The notes below the pieces were generated by a model that saw nothing but the letters and a program-made list of their open reading frames with translations, did no database searches and had not been told where the DNA came from. Positions 5,664 through 40,981 of a stretch of DNA of 40,981 nt are shown one piece after another. The stretch's first letter is position 1. Each line of letters opens with the position of its first letter. Source of the DNA: Escherichia phage J8-65. A program made the position numbers and the translations under genes. The stretch is taken from sequence record NC_025445.1, one strand, 5' to 3'.

Positions 5664-5903
5664 ATGAAAGTAACTGTATTGCACAACATCGGAGGAGATA
5701 TGCTCAAAGTAATATTGTTGTTCCTGCTTCTGGTAATTATTTGGGGAGCGTTATGGGTGGGTCTTGCATCACTGGTGCTTATCCCTGCGGTCGGTGAGTC
5801 AGCCACTTCAACACTGGGCACACTGCTCGGCATGTTGGTGGGCTGGGGTCTGATGCAGTTGAGCCTGAGTGTAGGCCAGAATCGGGGGTGGATTAAATGG
5901 TGA
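5664..5903 (+). CDS. small membrane protein with two predicted TM helices (79 aa)
   Basis: ATG 5664; VILLFLLLVIIWGALWVGLASLVLIPAV and LGTLLGMLVGWGLMQLSLSV hydrophobic segments. Confidence 0.55.
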   Translation: MKVTVLHNIGGDMLKVILLFLLLVIIWGALWVGLASLVLIPAVGESATSTLGTLLGMLVGWGLMQLSLSVGQNRGWIKW

Positions 5904-7056: not shown

Positions 7057-8322
7057 GTGTTAGACAAACTGTTGCTCTCTGTCATGCGTGAGCGAGGGAA
7101 GTATAACTCCCTGCGCCATGCCATTCCAGAGGACACTATGAGTCAGACCACAGGCTACATGCTGCGTGCGTATGGCTCATACTTCGAGGCGTTCCCGGAT
7201 TCAGATTACGTGGATATGGAAACGCTAGGCACACACGTCCGGCTCAAGACTGGGAGTACACCGGAGCAGATGGCTGCGTTCGAATCGCTATGCCAGCAGC
7301 TCAAGGAATACCAGCCGACGAAGCAGCAGACCGAAGGCATCATCGACCAGTTAGTCGAGCTGGATACAGCAGGCAAGGTTAACCTCCTTGCGCAGAGGTA
7401 CGACAATGGCGATGAGATTGATTTCATCTATGAGCTGGGCCGCCTTGCAGAAGGCGCACGCCGCAGTCGAGGGCAGTCATCTGTCACTGATTACGTTGAC
7501 GATGATGTGGTTGATATTATCAATCGGACGGATGATGACCACGGTTTCAAGTTCGGTCTCATGTGTTTGCAGGACAGCGTTAGGGTACTTCTCCCCGGTG
7601 ACTCCGTTGCAATCGGCGCTCGACCCGACAGTGGCAAGACTTCCTTCATCGCGTTTAACCTTACGAGAATGGCGGCGACAGCAGCGAAGCTGTATCCGGG
7701 CCGACCAATCCTATGGTTCAACAACGAAGGGCAGGGCATCAACATCATCCCGCGCATCTACCAAGCGGCGCTCGGCTGTACGCTCCCGGAGTTAAAGGCA
7801 CTGGGTGCAGACAGGAAGAAGTTGCATGAGAAGTACGCGAAGGCGTTGAATGCTCCGGCCAACATCATACGTGTGAAGGACATGCACGGTGCAACGTTGG
7901 CCAAAGCGGAGCAGGTGATTGAAGCAATGAATCCCTGCATCGTGGTGTGGGATATGCTGGCAAACTTCAAGTTGTCTGTGGCTGACGCTAACAGCAACAA
8001 GGCCAGCCAAGTCGAGCAGCTCTGGCAGGAGGTACGTGAGCTGGCGGTACGTCATGACTTCGTATCGCTGGCTACGGTTCAGGTATCCGCAGACGGTGCC
8101 GACGATATGTTCCCCGCGCTAGACGCACTCAAGGATTCCAAGACTGGTATCCAAGGTGCGACCGATGTGATTGTCATGCTGGGTTCCGTTGACGACCCGG
8201 CGCTGGCAGCGAGGCGCGGCGTGAGCACTCCGAAGAACAAGCGGCAGATAGCTGGGCGTCCGTCCAACGTCCGTTCGCAGGTTCACTTCTATGCTGATAA
8301 ATGTCAATTCGAGGATATGTGA
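7057..8322 (+). CDS. DnaB-like replicative DNA helicase (421 aa)
   Basis: GTG start 5 nt after AGGAGG; Walker A GARPDSGKTS; position matches T7 gp4 helicase domain. Confidence 0.75.
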   Translation: MLDKLLLSVMRERGKYNSLRHAIPEDTMSQTTGYMLRAYGSYFEAFPDSDYVDMETLGTHVRLKTGSTPEQMAAFESLCQQLKEYQPTKQQTEGIIDQLVELDTAGKVNLLAQRYDNGDEIDFIYELGRLAEGARRSRGQSSVTDYVDDDVVDIINRTDDDHGFKFGLMCLQDSVRVLLPGDSVAIGARPDSGKTSFIAFNLTRMAATAAKLYPGRPILWFNNEGQGINIIPRIYQAALGCTLPELKALGADRKKLHEKYAKALNAPANIIRVKDMHGATLAKAEQVIEAMNPCIVVWDMLANFKLSVADANSNKASQVEQLWQEVRELAVRHDFVSLATVQVSADGADDMFPALDALKDSKTGIQGATDVIVMLGSVDDPALAARRGVSTPKNKRQIAGRPSNVRSQVHFYADKCQFEDM

Positions 8323-36341: not shown

Positions 36342-36632
36342 ATGGCATCCGTGAATAAGCAGCTCGATGGGCTGCACCGGATGCTGGTTGAGTATCTGAC
36401 CACTCGGCTGTCTGAGTGCATGAAGCCCGGTAACGAGCCAATGCCAGCAGCCGAGCTGTCGGTACTTCGCCAGTTCCTGAAAGACAATGGCATCCAAGCA
36501 GATGCTGACCACGCCGACGACCTGCTGGCGCTGCAAGAGCAGCTCAACAAAGAGAAGTCGGATACGGAGCGGAAGTCCATCATGGACTCTGCCATCAAAG
36601 CAATTGCAGAAGATAGCGGGATGATGCACTAA
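36342..36632 (+). CDS. terminase small subunit (96 aa)
   Basis: size and position as T7 gp18; AAGGAG RBS. Confidence 0.7.
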   Translation: MASVNKQLDGLHRMLVEYLTTRLSECMKPGNEPMPAAELSVLRQFLKDNGIQADADHADDLLALQEQLNKEKSDTERKSIMDSAIKAIAEDSGMMH

Positions 36633-38392
36633 TGGATTTACAACGCCGCATGGTGATGGCAGGAATCGTTCGCGCACACTACGAGAACAACTTCCCGCTG
36701 TTCCTGCATGACTACTTCGCATGGCTGGGCTTTGACCTCACTGAAATGCAGCTCGATATTGGCCGCTACATGGCCGACCGGACGCTCAAGAACAAGTGCG
36801 TCATGGCTCAGCGCGGTGAGGCCAAGTCCACCATCGGCATTGCCCGTGCCCTGTATGAGTTCGTCCAGATGCCTAACGCCACCGTGCTGCTGGTATCTGG
36901 TTCTGACGACTATGCGGGTACGCTCTCGCACGCCATCGTATCTGCCATTATGCAATGGGACAGGTTGGAATGGCTGCGCCCTGAAACTCGCGCTGGCGCA
37001 CGTACCTCTTATACAGACGGTTTCGATGTACACCACGCATTTCGTATTCCTGATAAACAGCCCTCTGTCAAAGCGGTCGGTATCTTCGGCCAGTTGCAGG
37101 GGAACCACGTATCGCTGTTGATTGCCGATGACGTGGAGACTACCAGTAACGGTAGCTCTCCTGCCAACCGCGCCCGTATCAACACCCTGACCAAAGAGTT
37201 CGCGGCTATCGCCAACGACGGCGCAGAGATTCTGTACCTCGGCACGCCGCAGACTCAGGATTCCATCTACAACACGCTCCCGCAGCGTGGCTTCGACGTT
37301 CGCATCTGGCCCGGTCGTTTCCCAACGGTTGAGGAAGAAGAACGCTACGGCGGCTGTCTGGCCCCGTGGATTAAGCAGAAGATGGATGGCCACCCTGAAC
37401 TGCGTACTGGTTACGGTATCCTTGGGAACCGTGGTGCGCAGACTGACCCTCAGCGTTACTCCGAAGAGAAGCAGCTACAGAACGAACGAGACTACCAGCA
37501 GGCAGGCTTCCAGCTACAGTTCATGCTGGACACGTCGCTGTCAGATGCACTGAAACAGACTCTGCATATCCGGGATGTTATCTTCTTCCACGGCTCGCCG
37601 CAGTCTGCACCGGAGTATCTGCACTGGTCGAATCATTCGCGTCACTTGGCCGAGCTGCCAATGGACTTCCCACTCGCTCGCGCCCAGCTCTATCTGGCCG
37701 CTGACTTCTCTGAGACGTATGTACCATTCACGAATACCAAGGCGTTTCTTGACCCTGCTGGTGGTGGGTCGGACGAATCCGTTCTCTTCGCCACAGCTTC
37801 TATCGGCCCGTTTATCCACGTCATCGGTATGCACGTCTACCACGGCGGCCAGACGGAAGAGAACATCAAGGCGGCGGTAGAGTGGTGCCACGAGCTGGGT
37901 GTCCAGCACATCACCATTGAGGACAACATGGGCCACGGTGCCGTGACCAACATGTACCGTGGTGAGATTAAGCGTCAAGGACTGACAATCGGCTGTGAGG
38001 GTATTTACTCCAGCGGCCAGAAAGAAGTGCGTATCATCAATCGGTTGAGTCCTATCCTCCAGCGCCACCGCGTGGTAATCCACTGGTCGGTTGTTGAGGA
38101 AGACCTGCGCCTGTGCCGGGCCATGAACAACGGTGGCCGGGAATATAGCCTGTTCTGGCAGATGCAGAACTTGACGCAGGACAAAGGCTCCATTCCGCAC
38201 GATGACCGCATCGAAACCCTATCCGCTGCCGTGTATCTCCACGCCGAGGTACTCCAGCAAGACGAACATGAAGAGGCCCAAAAGCGTGAAGTGGCCGCCG
38301 CTCGTGAGTTTGTTGCCAACCCAATGGGGTACGACGACTCGAAGTGGCGCAGTCATAAGCGTGTCCGTGGCACTCGTCGGAGAATCCGCTAA
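36632..38392 (+). CDS. terminase large subunit (586 aa)
   Basis: same length as T7 gp19; ATPase-like N-terminus and DPAGGGSDES nuclease-like motif. Confidence 0.85.
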   Translation: MDLQRRMVMAGIVRAHYENNFPLFLHDYFAWLGFDLTEMQLDIGRYMADRTLKNKCVMAQRGEAKSTIGIARALYEFVQMPNATVLLVSGSDDYAGTLSHAIVSAIMQWDRLEWLRPETRAGARTSYTDGFDVHHAFRIPDKQPSVKAVGIFGQLQGNHVSLLIADDVETTSNGSSPANRARINTLTKEFAAIANDGAEILYLGTPQTQDSIYNTLPQRGFDVRIWPGRFPTVEEEERYGGCLAPWIKQKMDGHPELRTGYGILGNRGAQTDPQRYSEEKQLQNERDYQQAGFQLQFMLDTSLSDALKQTLHIRDVIFFHGSPQSAPEYLHWSNHSRHLAELPMDFPLARAQLYLAADFSETYVPFTNTKAFLDPAGGGSDESVLFATASIGPFIHVIGMHVYHGGQTEENIKAAVEWCHELGVQHITIEDNMGHGAVTNMYRGEIKRQGLTIGCEGIYSSGQKEVRIINRLSPILQRHRVVIHWSVVEEDLRLCRAMNNGGREYSLFWQMQNLTQDKGSIPHDDRIETLSAAVYLHAEVLQQDEHEEAQKREVAAAREFVANPMGYDDSKWRSHKRVRGTRRRIR

Positions 38393-39063
38393 TGTCTTTG
38401 ATTTCTATCACTAATCAGCAGCGGTACGATATTGGCTACCGTGCCAACATCGCCGCCAATCTGACCCAACGCTTCGTGAACAACACGAAGACACTGACGG
38501 CTGAGCAGGCTGCGCCAATCGACGCGGCCATTACCCAGCTCATGACGGCTCTGGAAGCCGCTGGCTACACCTCTGTACCGGAAGGCTCTGCCATCGTCGC
38601 AGACGGCGCTGCAACCACTGTGGTGAACGCGAACGGTACTGTGCAGAAGGCTGCCACCTTCGACGTTAACGGTGAGACGGTTACTGTCGCCCTGCCTGCT
38701 ACTGTCGGTATGAAGTCCAACAACGACTCCATCTCTGTGCAGAACGTGAATGGTGCGGCTGGTGTAACCTCCACCTCGTACGTGGACAGCAACGGTGTAC
38801 TGGTCGCCGCCCGGCTGCCAGCAACCACGGCTGTAATCGCCAGTGGCAACAACATCCAGATTCGCAACTCCGCTGGCACCGCCATCGGTAACGCGACCTT
38901 CACCGTATCCAACGGTGTCATCACGTACGGTACACTTCCTGCGACCATTGCTGGCGTAGCGAACGGTGCCACCCTCACTGGTGTAGCGCCGACTGGCACG
39001 TACACCAATACCGTAACCTTCACTGTCGCTGGTGGTGTTATCACTGGCATTGCACTGTCCTAA
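38392..39063 (+). CDS. beta-rich repeat protein, possible fibrous or receptor-binding accessory (223 aa)
   Basis: three internal repeats (ATFDVNGETVTVALPAT / ATFTVSNGVITYGTLPAT / VTFTVAGGVITGIAL); Thr/Val/Gly/Ala-rich. Confidence 0.5.
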   Translation: MSLISITNQQRYDIGYRANIAANLTQRFVNNTKTLTAEQAAPIDAAITQLMTALEAAGYTSVPEGSAIVADGAATTVVNANGTVQKAATFDVNGETVTVALPATVGMKSNNDSISVQNVNGAAGVTSTSYVDSNGVLVAARLPATTAVIASGNNIQIRNSAGTAIGNATFTVSNGVITYGTLPATIAGVANGATLTGVAPTGTYTNTVTFTVAGGVITGIALS

Positions 39064-39074
39064 CGGGAGATTTT

Positions 39075-39260
39075 ATGTCCTTAGCAACTTCTACCGCCGC
39101 TGAGCGTGCGGGACTGGTGGCGGCCTGCAACATGCTGGCCAAATACCTCAACGTGTACACGGAAGACTACCACCTGAATACGGCTGACACTGACCTGCTG
39201 GCTGAGCATCAGGTGTACATCGACCGTGTGAAAGCAGCTACGGCTGCCATCGACGCATAA
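39075..39260 (+). CDS. hypothetical protein (61 aa)
   Basis: GGGAG RBS; no TM segment. Confidence 0.5.
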   Translation: MSLATSTAAERAGLVAACNMLAKYLNVYTEDYHLNTADTDLLAEHQVYIDRVKAATAAIDA

Positions 39261-39270
39261 GAGGTAGCGT

Positions 39271-39762
39271 ATGAAACTGTCTCGGCTATTGGCCGGGGCA
39301 GTCCTCTCATTGTCTCTGACTTTGACGGGCTGCTCCGCAACTAGCGCACTGTCTGCTGTAACTTCGGCTGTCTCTCCTAACAAGCCGGAACTGACGGCAC
39401 AGGTAGGTGCAGAGAACACGAAGCAAGGCATCGGTGTGACTGCGAAACAGTCCGACGAAACCGAAGTCGGTGACGTATCAGGTAACGCGAAAGTGGATAC
39501 CGCTAAACAGGGTAGTAACGCTACGACCGTCAAGGACGTTACAGGCGGCTCTGTAAACGCTTCTAAGCAGGGGTCTCAGATGACCCAAGGGAACGTACAG
39601 GCTAAGACTGTTATCGTCTCACAGAGCGACCCACGCAGCCTATTGTGGGCATTTGGCATGGGCCTTACGTGTATTCTTGGTTTGGTAATGTGGTTTGTAC
39701 CATCTCCGTGGAAGAGGAAGGTAAGAGATGACGGAAGCAAAACGAAAGGAGCCGACTCCTAA
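39271..39762 (+). CDS. candidate unimolecular spanin: lipoprotein with C-terminal TM helix (163 aa)
   Basis: N-terminal signal with lipobox LTLTGC; C-terminal LLWAFGMGLTCILGLVMWFV TM segment then basic tail; topology as phage T1 gp11. Confidence 0.55.
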   Translation: MKLSRLLAGAVLSLSLTLTGCSATSALSAVTSAVSPNKPELTAQVGAENTKQGIGVTAKQSDETEVGDVSGNAKVDTAKQGSNATTVKDVTGGSVNASKQGSQMTQGNVQAKTVIVSQSDPRSLLWAFGMGLTCILGLVMWFVPSPWKRKVRDDGSKTKGADS

Positions 39763-40114
39763 CATCCACTCGCGTATGGGTGCAGTGGAGGCTCGTATGC
39801 AGACCGTAGAACTACGCCTCGACAAACACGAAGTGCAAATCGCTAACCTTGAGAAAGGCGACGCTGCGATGCTCACGAAGCTGGCTGAGAACGACTCGCG
39901 CTGGCAGCAGGTTCAGCAGCAGCTCTTGGTGGTCGAGCAGATTCAGGATATCCAGAGAACTATGAGCCATATCGGTAAGTTGTTTACGGCGGCAGCACAC
40001 GCCGTCAAATGGTGCCTGTTAACCGCATCCCTGTGCAGCGGTGTGTATTTAGCAATTAAGGCTGGCGACCTCACAGCTCTCCAGTCCTTTATCACAAGCA
40101 TTATGGGGATGTAA
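39728..40114 (+). CDS. lysis-cassette membrane protein, candidate atypical holin (128 aa)
   Basis: GAGGAAGG RBS; ~85-aa coiled-coil-like N-terminus then one hydrophobic segment WCLLTASLCSGVYLAI; sits between spanin and endolysin. Confidence 0.45.
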   Translation: MTEAKRKEPTPNIHSRMGAVEARMQTVELRLDKHEVQIANLEKGDAAMLTKLAENDSRWQQVQQQLLVVEQIQDIQRTMSHIGKLFTAAAHAVKWCLLTASLCSGVYLAIKAGDLTALQSFITSIMGM

Positions 40115-40650
40115 TGACTAACTTTGAAATCTGTATGAAGTTCACCGGGCTGGCAGAAGGCGGGTACACCAAGCTGCCCGGTGACACTGGAGGGGAAACG
40201 AATCATGGAATTAGCGACGCTCGTGATGGCAAACTGGATGGCCGAATTTGTGGTGTCCCTACTGGGCTTGGTGGCTCTATTTGTGTGCCTGTCAAACAGC
40301 TCACCAAAGAGCAAGCCAACGCTATCTACCGGGCCGAGTATTTCGACCCCATCAAAGGTGACGAGCTACACCCTGCGATTGCATGTGCCGTGTTCGACTA
40401 CGGTGTCAACTCCGGTATCAGCCGTGCGGCGAAAGCTCTACAGCGGGTATGCGGCGTTGCACAAGACGGGGTTATTGGCCCTGCAACCGTGGCAGCAGCC
40501 AAACGTCTGGAACCTCACTCCGCAGCAGCATCCATCTGTGACCTTCGTATTGCGTTCCTAAAGGCTTCTACAGCCCCGACAATCGTTCGGTATAGGGATG
40601 CCTTGGTTGCCCGTGCAAAACGCTGTAGCGCGTACTGTGCGACGTTATAG
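40114..40650 (+). CDS. endolysin, GH108 muramidase with PG_binding_3-like C-terminal domain (178 aa)
   Basis: N-terminal LAEGGYTKLPGDTGGETNHGI matches the GH108 EGGY motif; C-terminal region resembles PG_binding_3; no N-terminal SAR/TM segment. Confidence 0.75.
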   Translation: MTNFEICMKFTGLAEGGYTKLPGDTGGETNHGISDARDGKLDGRICGVPTGLGGSICVPVKQLTKEQANAIYRAEYFDPIKGDELHPAIACAVFDYGVNSGISRAAKALQRVCGVAQDGVIGPATVAAAKRLEPHSAAASICDLRIAFLKASTAPTIVRYRDALVARAKRCSAYCATL

Positions 40651-40722
40651 GGGCATTGAAAGCTAGGACATTGAACAGGCGTTTCCCGGCTTGAAAATTG
40701 ACTATTTGTGCGTGGGCCTCCC

Positions 40723-40981
40723 TCGACCCGAAGGAGCGCCTGCGCCCCCGTACGCCTGTGCGCGTGCGCGTGCATGACGTGTGCGCATTATGCGTGCGTG
40801 CCTGCGCGTGCGGTATTGCTCGCGTGCGTGCGGTATAGTTCGCGCGTGCCCGTTTCCATTGTCGCGGTGTGGTGCTGTGTGGTGCTGCGTCCTGCTGCTG
40901 CGTGCTGCGCCACTGCTACCACTGGACGCGCCTGCGCTGGGCTGCTGGTGCTGGGCGGTGCTGCTGTGTGTATCGGTGGCT
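40723..40981. repeat. right direct terminal repeat (DTR)
   Basis: identical to 1-259; window ends at last repeat base so the true DTR could be longer. Confidence 0.85.

Follow-up and report, generated by a model that had tools for sequence, protein, structure and literature searches.

Lysis Region of Phage J8-65

The DNA analysed here (the window) is the 40,981 bp sequence of Escherichia phage J8-65 (NC_025445.1), a complete genome of a T7-like podovirus in which all genes are on the + strand, as are the features of the lysis region given below. Its exact direct terminal repeats of 259 bp (1-259 = 40723-40981) indicate a linear genome present in full. The gene in question (39728..40114) encodes a protein of 128 amino acids (aa) and lies at the right end, where the order is TerL, an open reading frame (ORF) of 223 aa, an ORF of 61 aa, the unimolecular spanin (u-spanin) gene, the 128-aa protein gene, the endolysin gene, and the terminal repeat. 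Taking into account its sequence, its relatives, and its neighbours, we consider that this protein is probably the holin of the phage or an essential component of it which sets the timing of lysis.

The u-spanin gene (39271..39762) encodes a protein of 163 aa with the features that define this class, a lipoprotein signal with the lipobox cysteine in LTGC and a C-terminal transmembrane (TM) domain, LLWAFGMGLTCILGLVMWFV, and its match among the PHROGs is the "Rz-like spanin" phrog_1804 (6e-37). Kongari et al. (PMC6139136) placed its orthologues of J8-65 and LIMEzero in the T1 gp11 family of u-spanins, and observed that all other members of this family are accompanied by a pinholin and a signal-arrest-release (SAR) endolysin.

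The endolysin gene (40114..40650; 178 aa) is the last one before the terminal repeat. Its product is a soluble enzyme of glycoside hydrolase family 108 (GH108), with 77.1 bits against Glyco_hydro_108 (PF05838; cutoff 21.2; E 1.5e-21) and a match to phrog_315 at 2e-39. No signal, SAR, or TM segment was found in it, nor any hydrophobic window of 1.5 or more; in contrast, G7C gp61 has a SAR-like N-terminus. The absence of a hydrophobic N-terminus agrees with the first-pass annotation of this DNA, according to which the endolysin has no N-terminal signal-anchor. Its reasoning that such an enzyme needs a holin, and that none is visible, is sound. No ORF with two TM segments was found in the cassette. 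The enzyme has eight cysteines, including C170 and C174 near the C-terminus, which is unusual for an enzyme folded in the cytoplasm; they might permit redox control after release.

Gene and Architecture of the 128-aa Protein

The gene is packed tightly between those of the spanin and the endolysin. Its start overlaps the end of the u-spanin gene by exactly 35 nt, as had been described in the first-pass annotation, and at the other end its stop codon (TAA) and the ATG at 40114 with which the endolysin gene begins overlap in GTAATG. Considering that the ORF is conserved in 18 Bonnellvirus records (81-100% aa identity) and in Pantoea phage LIMEzero (53%), we take it as a real gene.

Two starts were considered for this gene. 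The first, M1, has a Shine-Dalgarno-like sequence, GAGGAAGG (39714..39721), 6 nt upstream of its ATG, and in each of the seven lineages compared M1 is preceded at 6-9 nt by an AAGG/AGGAGG motif. The N-terminal extension that this start adds (NIHSRMG.VEARM) is conserved at the protein level out to LIMEzero. The second, M24 (ATG at 39797), is preceded at 5 nt by an internal Shine-Dalgarno sequence, GGAGG (39787..39791), and would give a form of 105 aa. The arrangement GGAGG-N5-ATG is present at M24 in all lineages compared, and the phrog_35530 model as well as some database entries and gene callers start there. As for the dual-start motifs which had been proposed for checking, M1 and M24 each have a conserved Shine-Dalgarno sequence, but the one at M24 is confounded by its overlap with the codons of the conserved E-A-R-M. 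A pair of long and short products (128 and 105 aa) is plausible from these signals. M17 was rejected as a functional start, given that it has no Shine-Dalgarno sequence and is Ile in the uncultured relative L012.

Public annotations of the gene vary in the start codon, with products of 105, 106, 112, or 127-128 aa (Cronobacter phage RZ4, L010:1381-1719; LIMEzero; P0028/P0029/P0032). In LIMEzero, ORF54 (L018:3181-3501) is probably short by 25 residues, since its frame opens at L018:3106 with the conserved N-terminus and a Shine-Dalgarno sequence.

The protein has a sole and weak hydrophobic stretch, with a best 19-aa Kyte-Doolittle window of 1.56 at residues 92-110. The putative TM segment is a hydrophobic core of 16 residues, WCLLTASLCSGVYLAI (residues 95-110, W95-I110; 40010..40057), located between K94 and K111. 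The AlphaFold2 model (mean predicted local distance difference test score of 85) consists of a single helix along residues 13-111, a KAGD turn, and a helix along residues 115-127. Residues 17-84 (39776..39979), which include the XhlA-like motif LE.R.D.H..QI...EN..W, form a coiled-coil-like helix predicted to be cytoplasmic; one heptad register gives 13 hydrophobic residues in the 20 a/d positions, and the other registers give 5-8. Hydropathy, heptad register, and model are all in accordance with the long coiled-coil-like N-terminus and the one weak C-terminal hydrophobic segment noticed in the first-pass annotation. The KAGD turn and the amphipathic C-terminal helix of 14 residues (40058..40111; hydrophobic moment 0.34) are predicted to be periplasmic or interfacial, and the last 18 residues, KAGDLTALQSFITSIMGM, are amphipathic with a net charge of 0.

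The N-domain has 94 residues, of which 12 are basic and 12 acidic, and no signal sequence. Its length, its basic residues, and the lack of a signal make its export unlikely. The charges flanking the TM segment are net +2 on the N-side and 0 on the C-side. The model and these counts suggest that the protein is tail-anchored with an N-in/C-out topology. The opposite arrangement, an inner-membrane spanin with a periplasmic coiled coil, is unlikely considering the 12 basic residues of the N-domain and the absence of a signal sequence, and it is also disfavoured by locus L022, which has a family gene with no adjacent u-spanin. The comparison of the model with viral structures gave nothing with E < 1; fold searches are uninformative here because one long helix carries no fold information.

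A Protein Family Linked to Soluble Endolysins

A word-indexed search of 5.8 billion proteins recovered only 32 clusters, all with identities of at least 66%; no cluster had a name that indicates function. In a set of 50,697 phage records, the protein was present in Bonnellvirus and in Pantoea phage LIMEzero only, always as "hypothetical protein", and the PHROG to which it belongs, phrog_35530, is of "unknown function". The scan of 1.84 billion representatives with a HMMER profile of the family gave 51 matches at E ≤ 1e-3, mostly generic coiled coils. Seven full-length remote relatives (P0034-P0039 and P0044; 126-149 aa) were recognised, with E-values from 1.7e-12 to 2e-6. At 20-30% identity they keep the same plan, that is, [YH]R.[LVI]G.[LMI]E, a VV..I.[DE]I helix, the TM core, and a short amphipathic tail. 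All 17 aligned members share the arrangement of a basic residue, exactly 16 hydrophobic residues, and [KRH]-x-G-D, and G113 and D114 are invariant in the alignment. In P0044 (L044:474-857) the 16-residue core, YGTLVGGLGAAAYSSY, is rich in Gly, Ala, and Ser, and resembles SAR-type segments, which are able to leave the membrane.

In every context read, which for the remote homologues covered about 3 kb on each side, the family gene is directly upstream of an endolysin gene. The partner is a GH108 enzyme in the Bonnellvirus genomes, in the uncultured L012, L014, and L016, in LIMEzero, and in the Waewaevirus-like L032, L033, and L035. It is a GH24 enzyme (PF00959), of the T4-lysozyme type and unrelated to GH108, in L019, L021, L022/L023, L041, L042, and L044. 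No N-terminal hydrophobic segment was found in any of these endolysins, for which reason each of them needs a holin. Among the + strand ORFs of the GH24 cassettes and of LIMEzero, TM segments are restricted to the family member and to the u-spanin, if there is one; the u-spanin is also the only other membrane protein that recurs in the cassettes of the family. The 128-aa protein is small, has one predicted TM segment, and is adjacent to the endolysin gene, as is general for holins. Considering that a small membrane protein stays beside soluble endolysins of two folds, we regard the family as holin-like, and the linkage, read from gene order, would mark the gene in the position of the holin.

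Some of these cassettes have further genes. At L019:1170-1673, an ORF similar to the u-spanins (lipobox WGCS, C-terminal TM segment) overlaps the start of the family member and was not called by the metagenome gene caller. Immediately 3′ of the endolysin gene, the Waewaevirus-like loci (L032:3895-4161, L033:2773-3039, and L035:3584-3850) encode a protein of 88 aa that has a signal-anchor at its N-terminus (MKLTVKL..ALLPVIVGALFW), of which no equivalent was found in LIMEzero or Bonnellvirus. It could be a periplasmic regulator of lysis.

Comparison with Known Holins

The 128-aa protein was compared with XhlA of PBSX and gp24.1 of SPP1. Like them, it is small, has an N-terminal cytoplasmic coiled coil and a single C-terminal TM segment (both predicted here), and its gene lies directly upstream of that of a soluble endolysin. 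The holin genes of the XhlA/XhlB type flank or precede the endolysin gene, and gp24.1 has an in-frame dual start (PMC6316719). Matches to the XhlA profile (PF10779) below threshold were obtained for 13 of 14 family members, the best at 5.4e-4; SPP1 gp24.1, used as the positive control, gave 54.6 bits. XhlA-like "hemolysin" PHROGs were matched by 5 of 17 members. An XhlA/gp24.1 alignment built from SPP1 gp24.1 was then compared with the family profile by hhalign. The probability was 94.3% (E 9.6e-8) over 47 columns, which are of the coiled coil only, with the TM regions unaligned; the shared motif ends where the TM segment of XhlA begins. Unlike XhlA and gp24.1, the 128-aa protein is about 35 residues longer, with an extra helix of about 25 residues (VVEQIQDIQ..) between the W of the motif and the TM segment, it has a KxGD turn and a C-terminal amphipathic helix, and its family occurs in Gram-negative podoviruses provided with a u-spanin.

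A second comparison was made with gp142 of phiKZ, a protein of 131 aa whose function as a holin, releasing a soluble endolysin, was shown experimentally in 2026, and for which the name class IIIb was given (PMC12894885). It triggers when the proton motive force collapses (Sci Rep 2026, PMC12894885). The two proteins are alike in size (128 and 131 aa), in their predicted topology (one TM domain, N-in/C-out, between a large N-domain in the cytoplasm and a short tail in the periplasm), and in a cassette with genes for a spanin and a soluble endolysin. In its predicted topology and its cassette, the J8-65 protein agrees with class IIIb. However, the N-domain of gp142 is a helical bundle bound by the regulator gp143, whereas here it is one long coiled-coil-like helix, and the TM segment of the J8-65 protein is shorter and less hydrophobic. 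Homology between them was rejected (hhalign probability of 0.06%).

T4 gpt (class IIIa), which also releases a soluble endolysin, has likewise a single TM domain with N-in/C-out topology, but its large soluble domain is periplasmic and C-terminal, and there is no sequence relationship. With the KP34-like and phiKMV-like cassettes, the J8-65 cassette shares its location, the right end of the genome of an Autographiviridae phage, and the order of spanin, gene in the holin position, and endolysin; its u-spanin, like theirs, belongs to the T1 gp11 family. Lysis in those phages relies on a pinholin of 83 aa together with a SAR endolysin, whereas here there are a soluble endolysin and an unrelated tail-anchored protein.

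The first-pass annotation had left the choice between a new type of holin and a holin located elsewhere. Our results favour the tail-anchored protein as the holin, but not its newness. The components XhlA and gp24.1, with C-terminal TM segments, were already known and phiKZ gp142 is a proven holin, so that the term "new holin type" is overstated. The tail-anchored topology has precedents in both Gram-negative and Gram-positive phages, and what the 128-aa proteins represent is a new sequence family with that plan.

ORF Nested within the Endolysin Gene

The 128-aa protein had been taken as the only membrane candidate in the cassette. This did not hold, since an ORF with a TM segment, in the +1 frame inside the endolysin gene, had been missed. 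This candidate embedded ORF (40205..40561) has 118 aa from an ATG with GGAGGGG upstream, and there is an upstream GTG at 40181. Its N-terminal TM segment, MAEFVVSLLGLVALFVCLS (40238-40294), has a Kyte-Doolittle value of 2.31, and its tail of 88 residues is basic, contains no acidic residue, and is 32% S/T/P.

The +1 frame is free of stops in eight of nine lineages along about 140-156 codons (from about codon 9 to codons 146-166), with endolysins that are only 60-66% identical. The nested ORF has 118-150 codons and is also found within L012:3384-3920, L014:3415-3954, L032:3360-3887, L033:2238-2765, and L035:3049-3576. When the open run was compared with synonymous shuffles, P was 0.004-0.012 in the window, 0.001-0.002 in L012, 0.0003-0.0005 in L014, 0.01 in L032, 0.001 in L033, and 0.0017 in L035; for the +2 frame of the endolysin gene it was 0.2-0.9. 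The product has an N-terminal TM helix in the Bonnellvirus-like lineages, and in three lineages the TM segment of the alternative frame was more hydrophobic than expected (P 0.002-0.02). Between distant pairs, the identity of synonymous codons was 0.54-0.64 inside the overlap versus 0.41-0.49 outside it and about 0.5 in TerL. As for the controls, a +1 ORF of 155 codons in the TerL gene of the window is broken in every relative, and ordinary alternative frames were found in the GH24 endolysin genes beside the remote members and in four unrelated GH108 genes. On balance, it seems that selection keeps the +1 frame open in this lineage of endolysins, and the ORF may encode a partner of the holin or an antiholin.

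Taking these data together with the behaviour of XhlA, which requires a partner, it is possible to propose for the 128-aa protein the role of an XhlA-like co-holin or regulator which is unable to make holes alone and whose partner is the product of the embedded ORF. Such an arrangement would mirror XhlA with XhlB in PBSX and gp24.1 with gp26, which flank the endolysin gene of SPP1. In that system the holin with two TM segments is transcribed early and the XhlA-like protein late (PMC6316719); in PBSX, xhlA, xhlB, and xlyA are all required (Toyofuku et al., PMC5589764). Several results are against this proposal. The +1 frame has three stops and no TM segment in LIMEzero, and in the Waewaevirus-like contigs it is open with no significant TM segment. 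No embedded ORF was found in the GH24 cassettes, so it is not a universal partner of the tail-anchored family. Within the genus the synonymous variability over the overlap is not reduced, and in a control of 96 gene-frames of a single genome two other frames scored as high. An ATG or TTG with a G-rich Shine-Dalgarno sequence is kept at the same place in eight of nine lineages, but here the GGETN motif conserved in the endolysin is a confounder. The tail resembles an off-frame translation, and the product has no match in Pfam, PHROGs, or NCBIfam and no stand-alone homologue; the one relative present in the databases is this same embedded ORF, which was called a single time, and it is annotated in none of the annotated phage records examined. 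For these reasons we consider rather unlikely that the 128-aa protein is a mere co-holin of this kind. A variant in which it is an XhlA-like tail-anchored holin of a Gram-negative host, with a nested partner or antiholin in the Bonnellvirus and Waewaevirus-like relatives, has a somewhat low probability.

Two other interpretations of the embedded ORF were rejected. It does not encode a lipoprotein, given that the Cys is absent in L002 and L012 and that the -1 residue is Val. Nor is it fused to the 128-aa ORF, which is in the same frame, as two in-frame stops lie between them, the TAA of the 128-aa gene and a TGA forced by the C-M-K codons of the endolysin. The arrangement resembles that of lambda Rz1, nested in the +1 frame of Rz (PMC6139136). 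Here, unlike Rz1/Rz, the gene that contains the other is that of the endolysin and not that of a spanin, and the product is predicted to be a single-pass membrane protein instead of a lipoprotein.

Other Explanations and Candidates

It was also considered that the 128-aa protein could have no role in lysis and be a membrane-anchored factor for assembly, packaging, or superinfection exclusion, the endolysin being released by host factors or by an unrecognised route. Its only family assignment, phrog_35530, carries no function, and the weak hydrophobic segment could be an interface between proteins. Against this, members with 20-30% identity keep the position beside endolysins of two unrelated folds, the gene overlaps or is coupled with those of the spanin and the endolysin, and there is the similarity to XhlA. 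This explanation seems improbable to us.

Every candidate with a TM segment was scanned against Pfam, PHROGs, and NCBIfam, and no holin family was matched at a meaningful score. The six-frame scan for hydrophobic segments, which excluded off-frame ORFs inside large genes, left two other candidates on the coding strand, the embedded ORF and an early protein. The protein with two TM segments that had been indicated at 5664-5903 as a possible holin does exist, with its best start at 5700 (5700..5903; 67 aa; Shine-Dalgarno GGAGGAG; orthologue of smaasur_26), but as a holin it is weakly supported. That this early protein is the holin, leaving the 128-aa protein as an antiholin, a timing regulator, or a chaperone of the endolysin or the spanin, is the least probable of the explanations, since its class II size, its two strong TM segments, its strong Shine-Dalgarno sequence, and the SPP1 precedent of an early holin are opposed by its restriction to Bonnellvirus and its fast evolution there (45-100% identity within the genus versus 81-93% for the lysis genes), the lack of a homologue in LIMEzero, which has the same cassette, its location just upstream of the primase gene in the early/replication region, the lack of a match to any holin family, and an uncharged C-terminus. 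It possibly has a role in host takeover or superinfection exclusion.

Genomic Setting

At the DNA level, the lysis region (38392-40981) shares 97% identity with Escherichia phage smaasur and 80-86% with other Bonnellvirus (J8-65-like Autographiviridae); the genome is entered in IMG/VR as UViG_2706795724_000001. No holin is annotated in the full genomes of smaasur, LF82-23, and LIMEzero, and the paper on the bonnellvirus Kc261 implies that none was identified there (PMC8402661). The scan for sigma-70 promoters and terminators between 38300 and 40981 gave only chance-level results. Upstream of the lysis genes are TerL (36632-38392), the 223-aa ORF (38392-39063), which belongs to PHROG 9732, and the 61-aa ORF (39075-39260), which matches the first 56 positions of that same PHROG and resembles a duplicated N-terminal module of its neighbour. 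Both ORFs are kept upstream of the lysis genes in distant relatives. The terminal repeat is GC-rich, with iterations of the GCGTGCGTGC type that result in spurious ORFs rich in Cys and Val.

Long alternative frames were seen as well in other genes. The +1 frame of the helicase gene contains, at 7388-7795, an ORF of 146 codons with a TM-like segment, and that of the gene for the internal virion protein (smaasur 38235-40931) contains one of 224 codons; both exceed the length expected from synonymous shuffling (P 0.002 and 0.003, respectively).

Discussion

If the 128-aa protein is the holin, the following mechanism can be proposed. The protein would be a late product, synthesised along with the u-spanin and the endolysin. 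Its N-terminal helix of about 90 residues would stay in the cytoplasm and self-associate as a coiled coil, driving oligomerisation, and the short C-terminal hydrophobic helix would serve as a tail anchor, inserted N-in/C-out, so that the KAGD turn and the amphipathic helix of 14 residues lie on the periplasmic side. The protein would accumulate in the inner membrane and then oligomerise and permeabilise it by means of its short TM core, which is studded with polar residues. The folded, signal-less GH108 endolysin could then pass to the cell wall, and the u-spanin would act last, fusing or disrupting the outer membrane. Holins with dual starts use long and short forms to tune the timing of lysis; the M1 and M24 forms, each with its own Shine-Dalgarno sequence, may do the same here. 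The protein may act either alone, as phiKZ gp142 does, or with a partner, as XhlA does.

Several points weigh against the role of holin. With a value of 1.56 and a length of 16 residues, the hydrophobic segment is both weak and short, and in the remote member P0044 the hydrophobic window is below 1.2. The charged, hydrophilic C-terminal tail typical of holins is not present. The topology is derived from hydropathy, charge counts, and a monomer AlphaFold2 model. The protein itself scores 16.1 bits against the XhlA profile (PF10779; E 0.013), less than the gathering score of 34.7, and coiled-coil profiles can match spuriously, which bears on this similarity. Moreover, XhlA and gp24.1, with their C-terminal TM segments, act only together with a holin of two TM segments, XhlB or gp26 (PMC6316719), and no ORF of the XhlB/gp26 type was found in the cassette of any lineage examined. 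The embedded membrane ORF could be the real hole-former in this lineage, and in the genomes of the remote homologues it is possible that a holin lies beyond the context of about 3 kb. Even so, we maintain that the 128-aa protein is probably the holin or its timing component.

If this is correct, the finding would fill a gap noticed in surveys of phage lysis, represented by the u-spanins of J8-65 and LIMEzero, which appear with neither a pinholin and SAR endolysin nor an annotated holin. The family could receive a name and a profile for genome annotation, and the conserved core of 16 residues between basic residues, together with the invariant GD turn, are the features of the protein most worth mutating. 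The possible nested gene is relevant to the engineering of the endolysin and to the design of phage knockouts, because a "silent" change in the endolysin might alter a second protein; if it is real, the phage would have a two-part lysis clock, with one part hidden within the gene of the enzyme under control. The 128-aa proteins would be a second sequence family with the topology of the newly defined class IIIb, and this topology would be linked to the XhlA and gp24.1 proteins of Gram-positive phages. It would also suggest that tail-anchored coiled-coil holins are widespread and have been overlooked by pipelines that look for small proteins with several TM segments.

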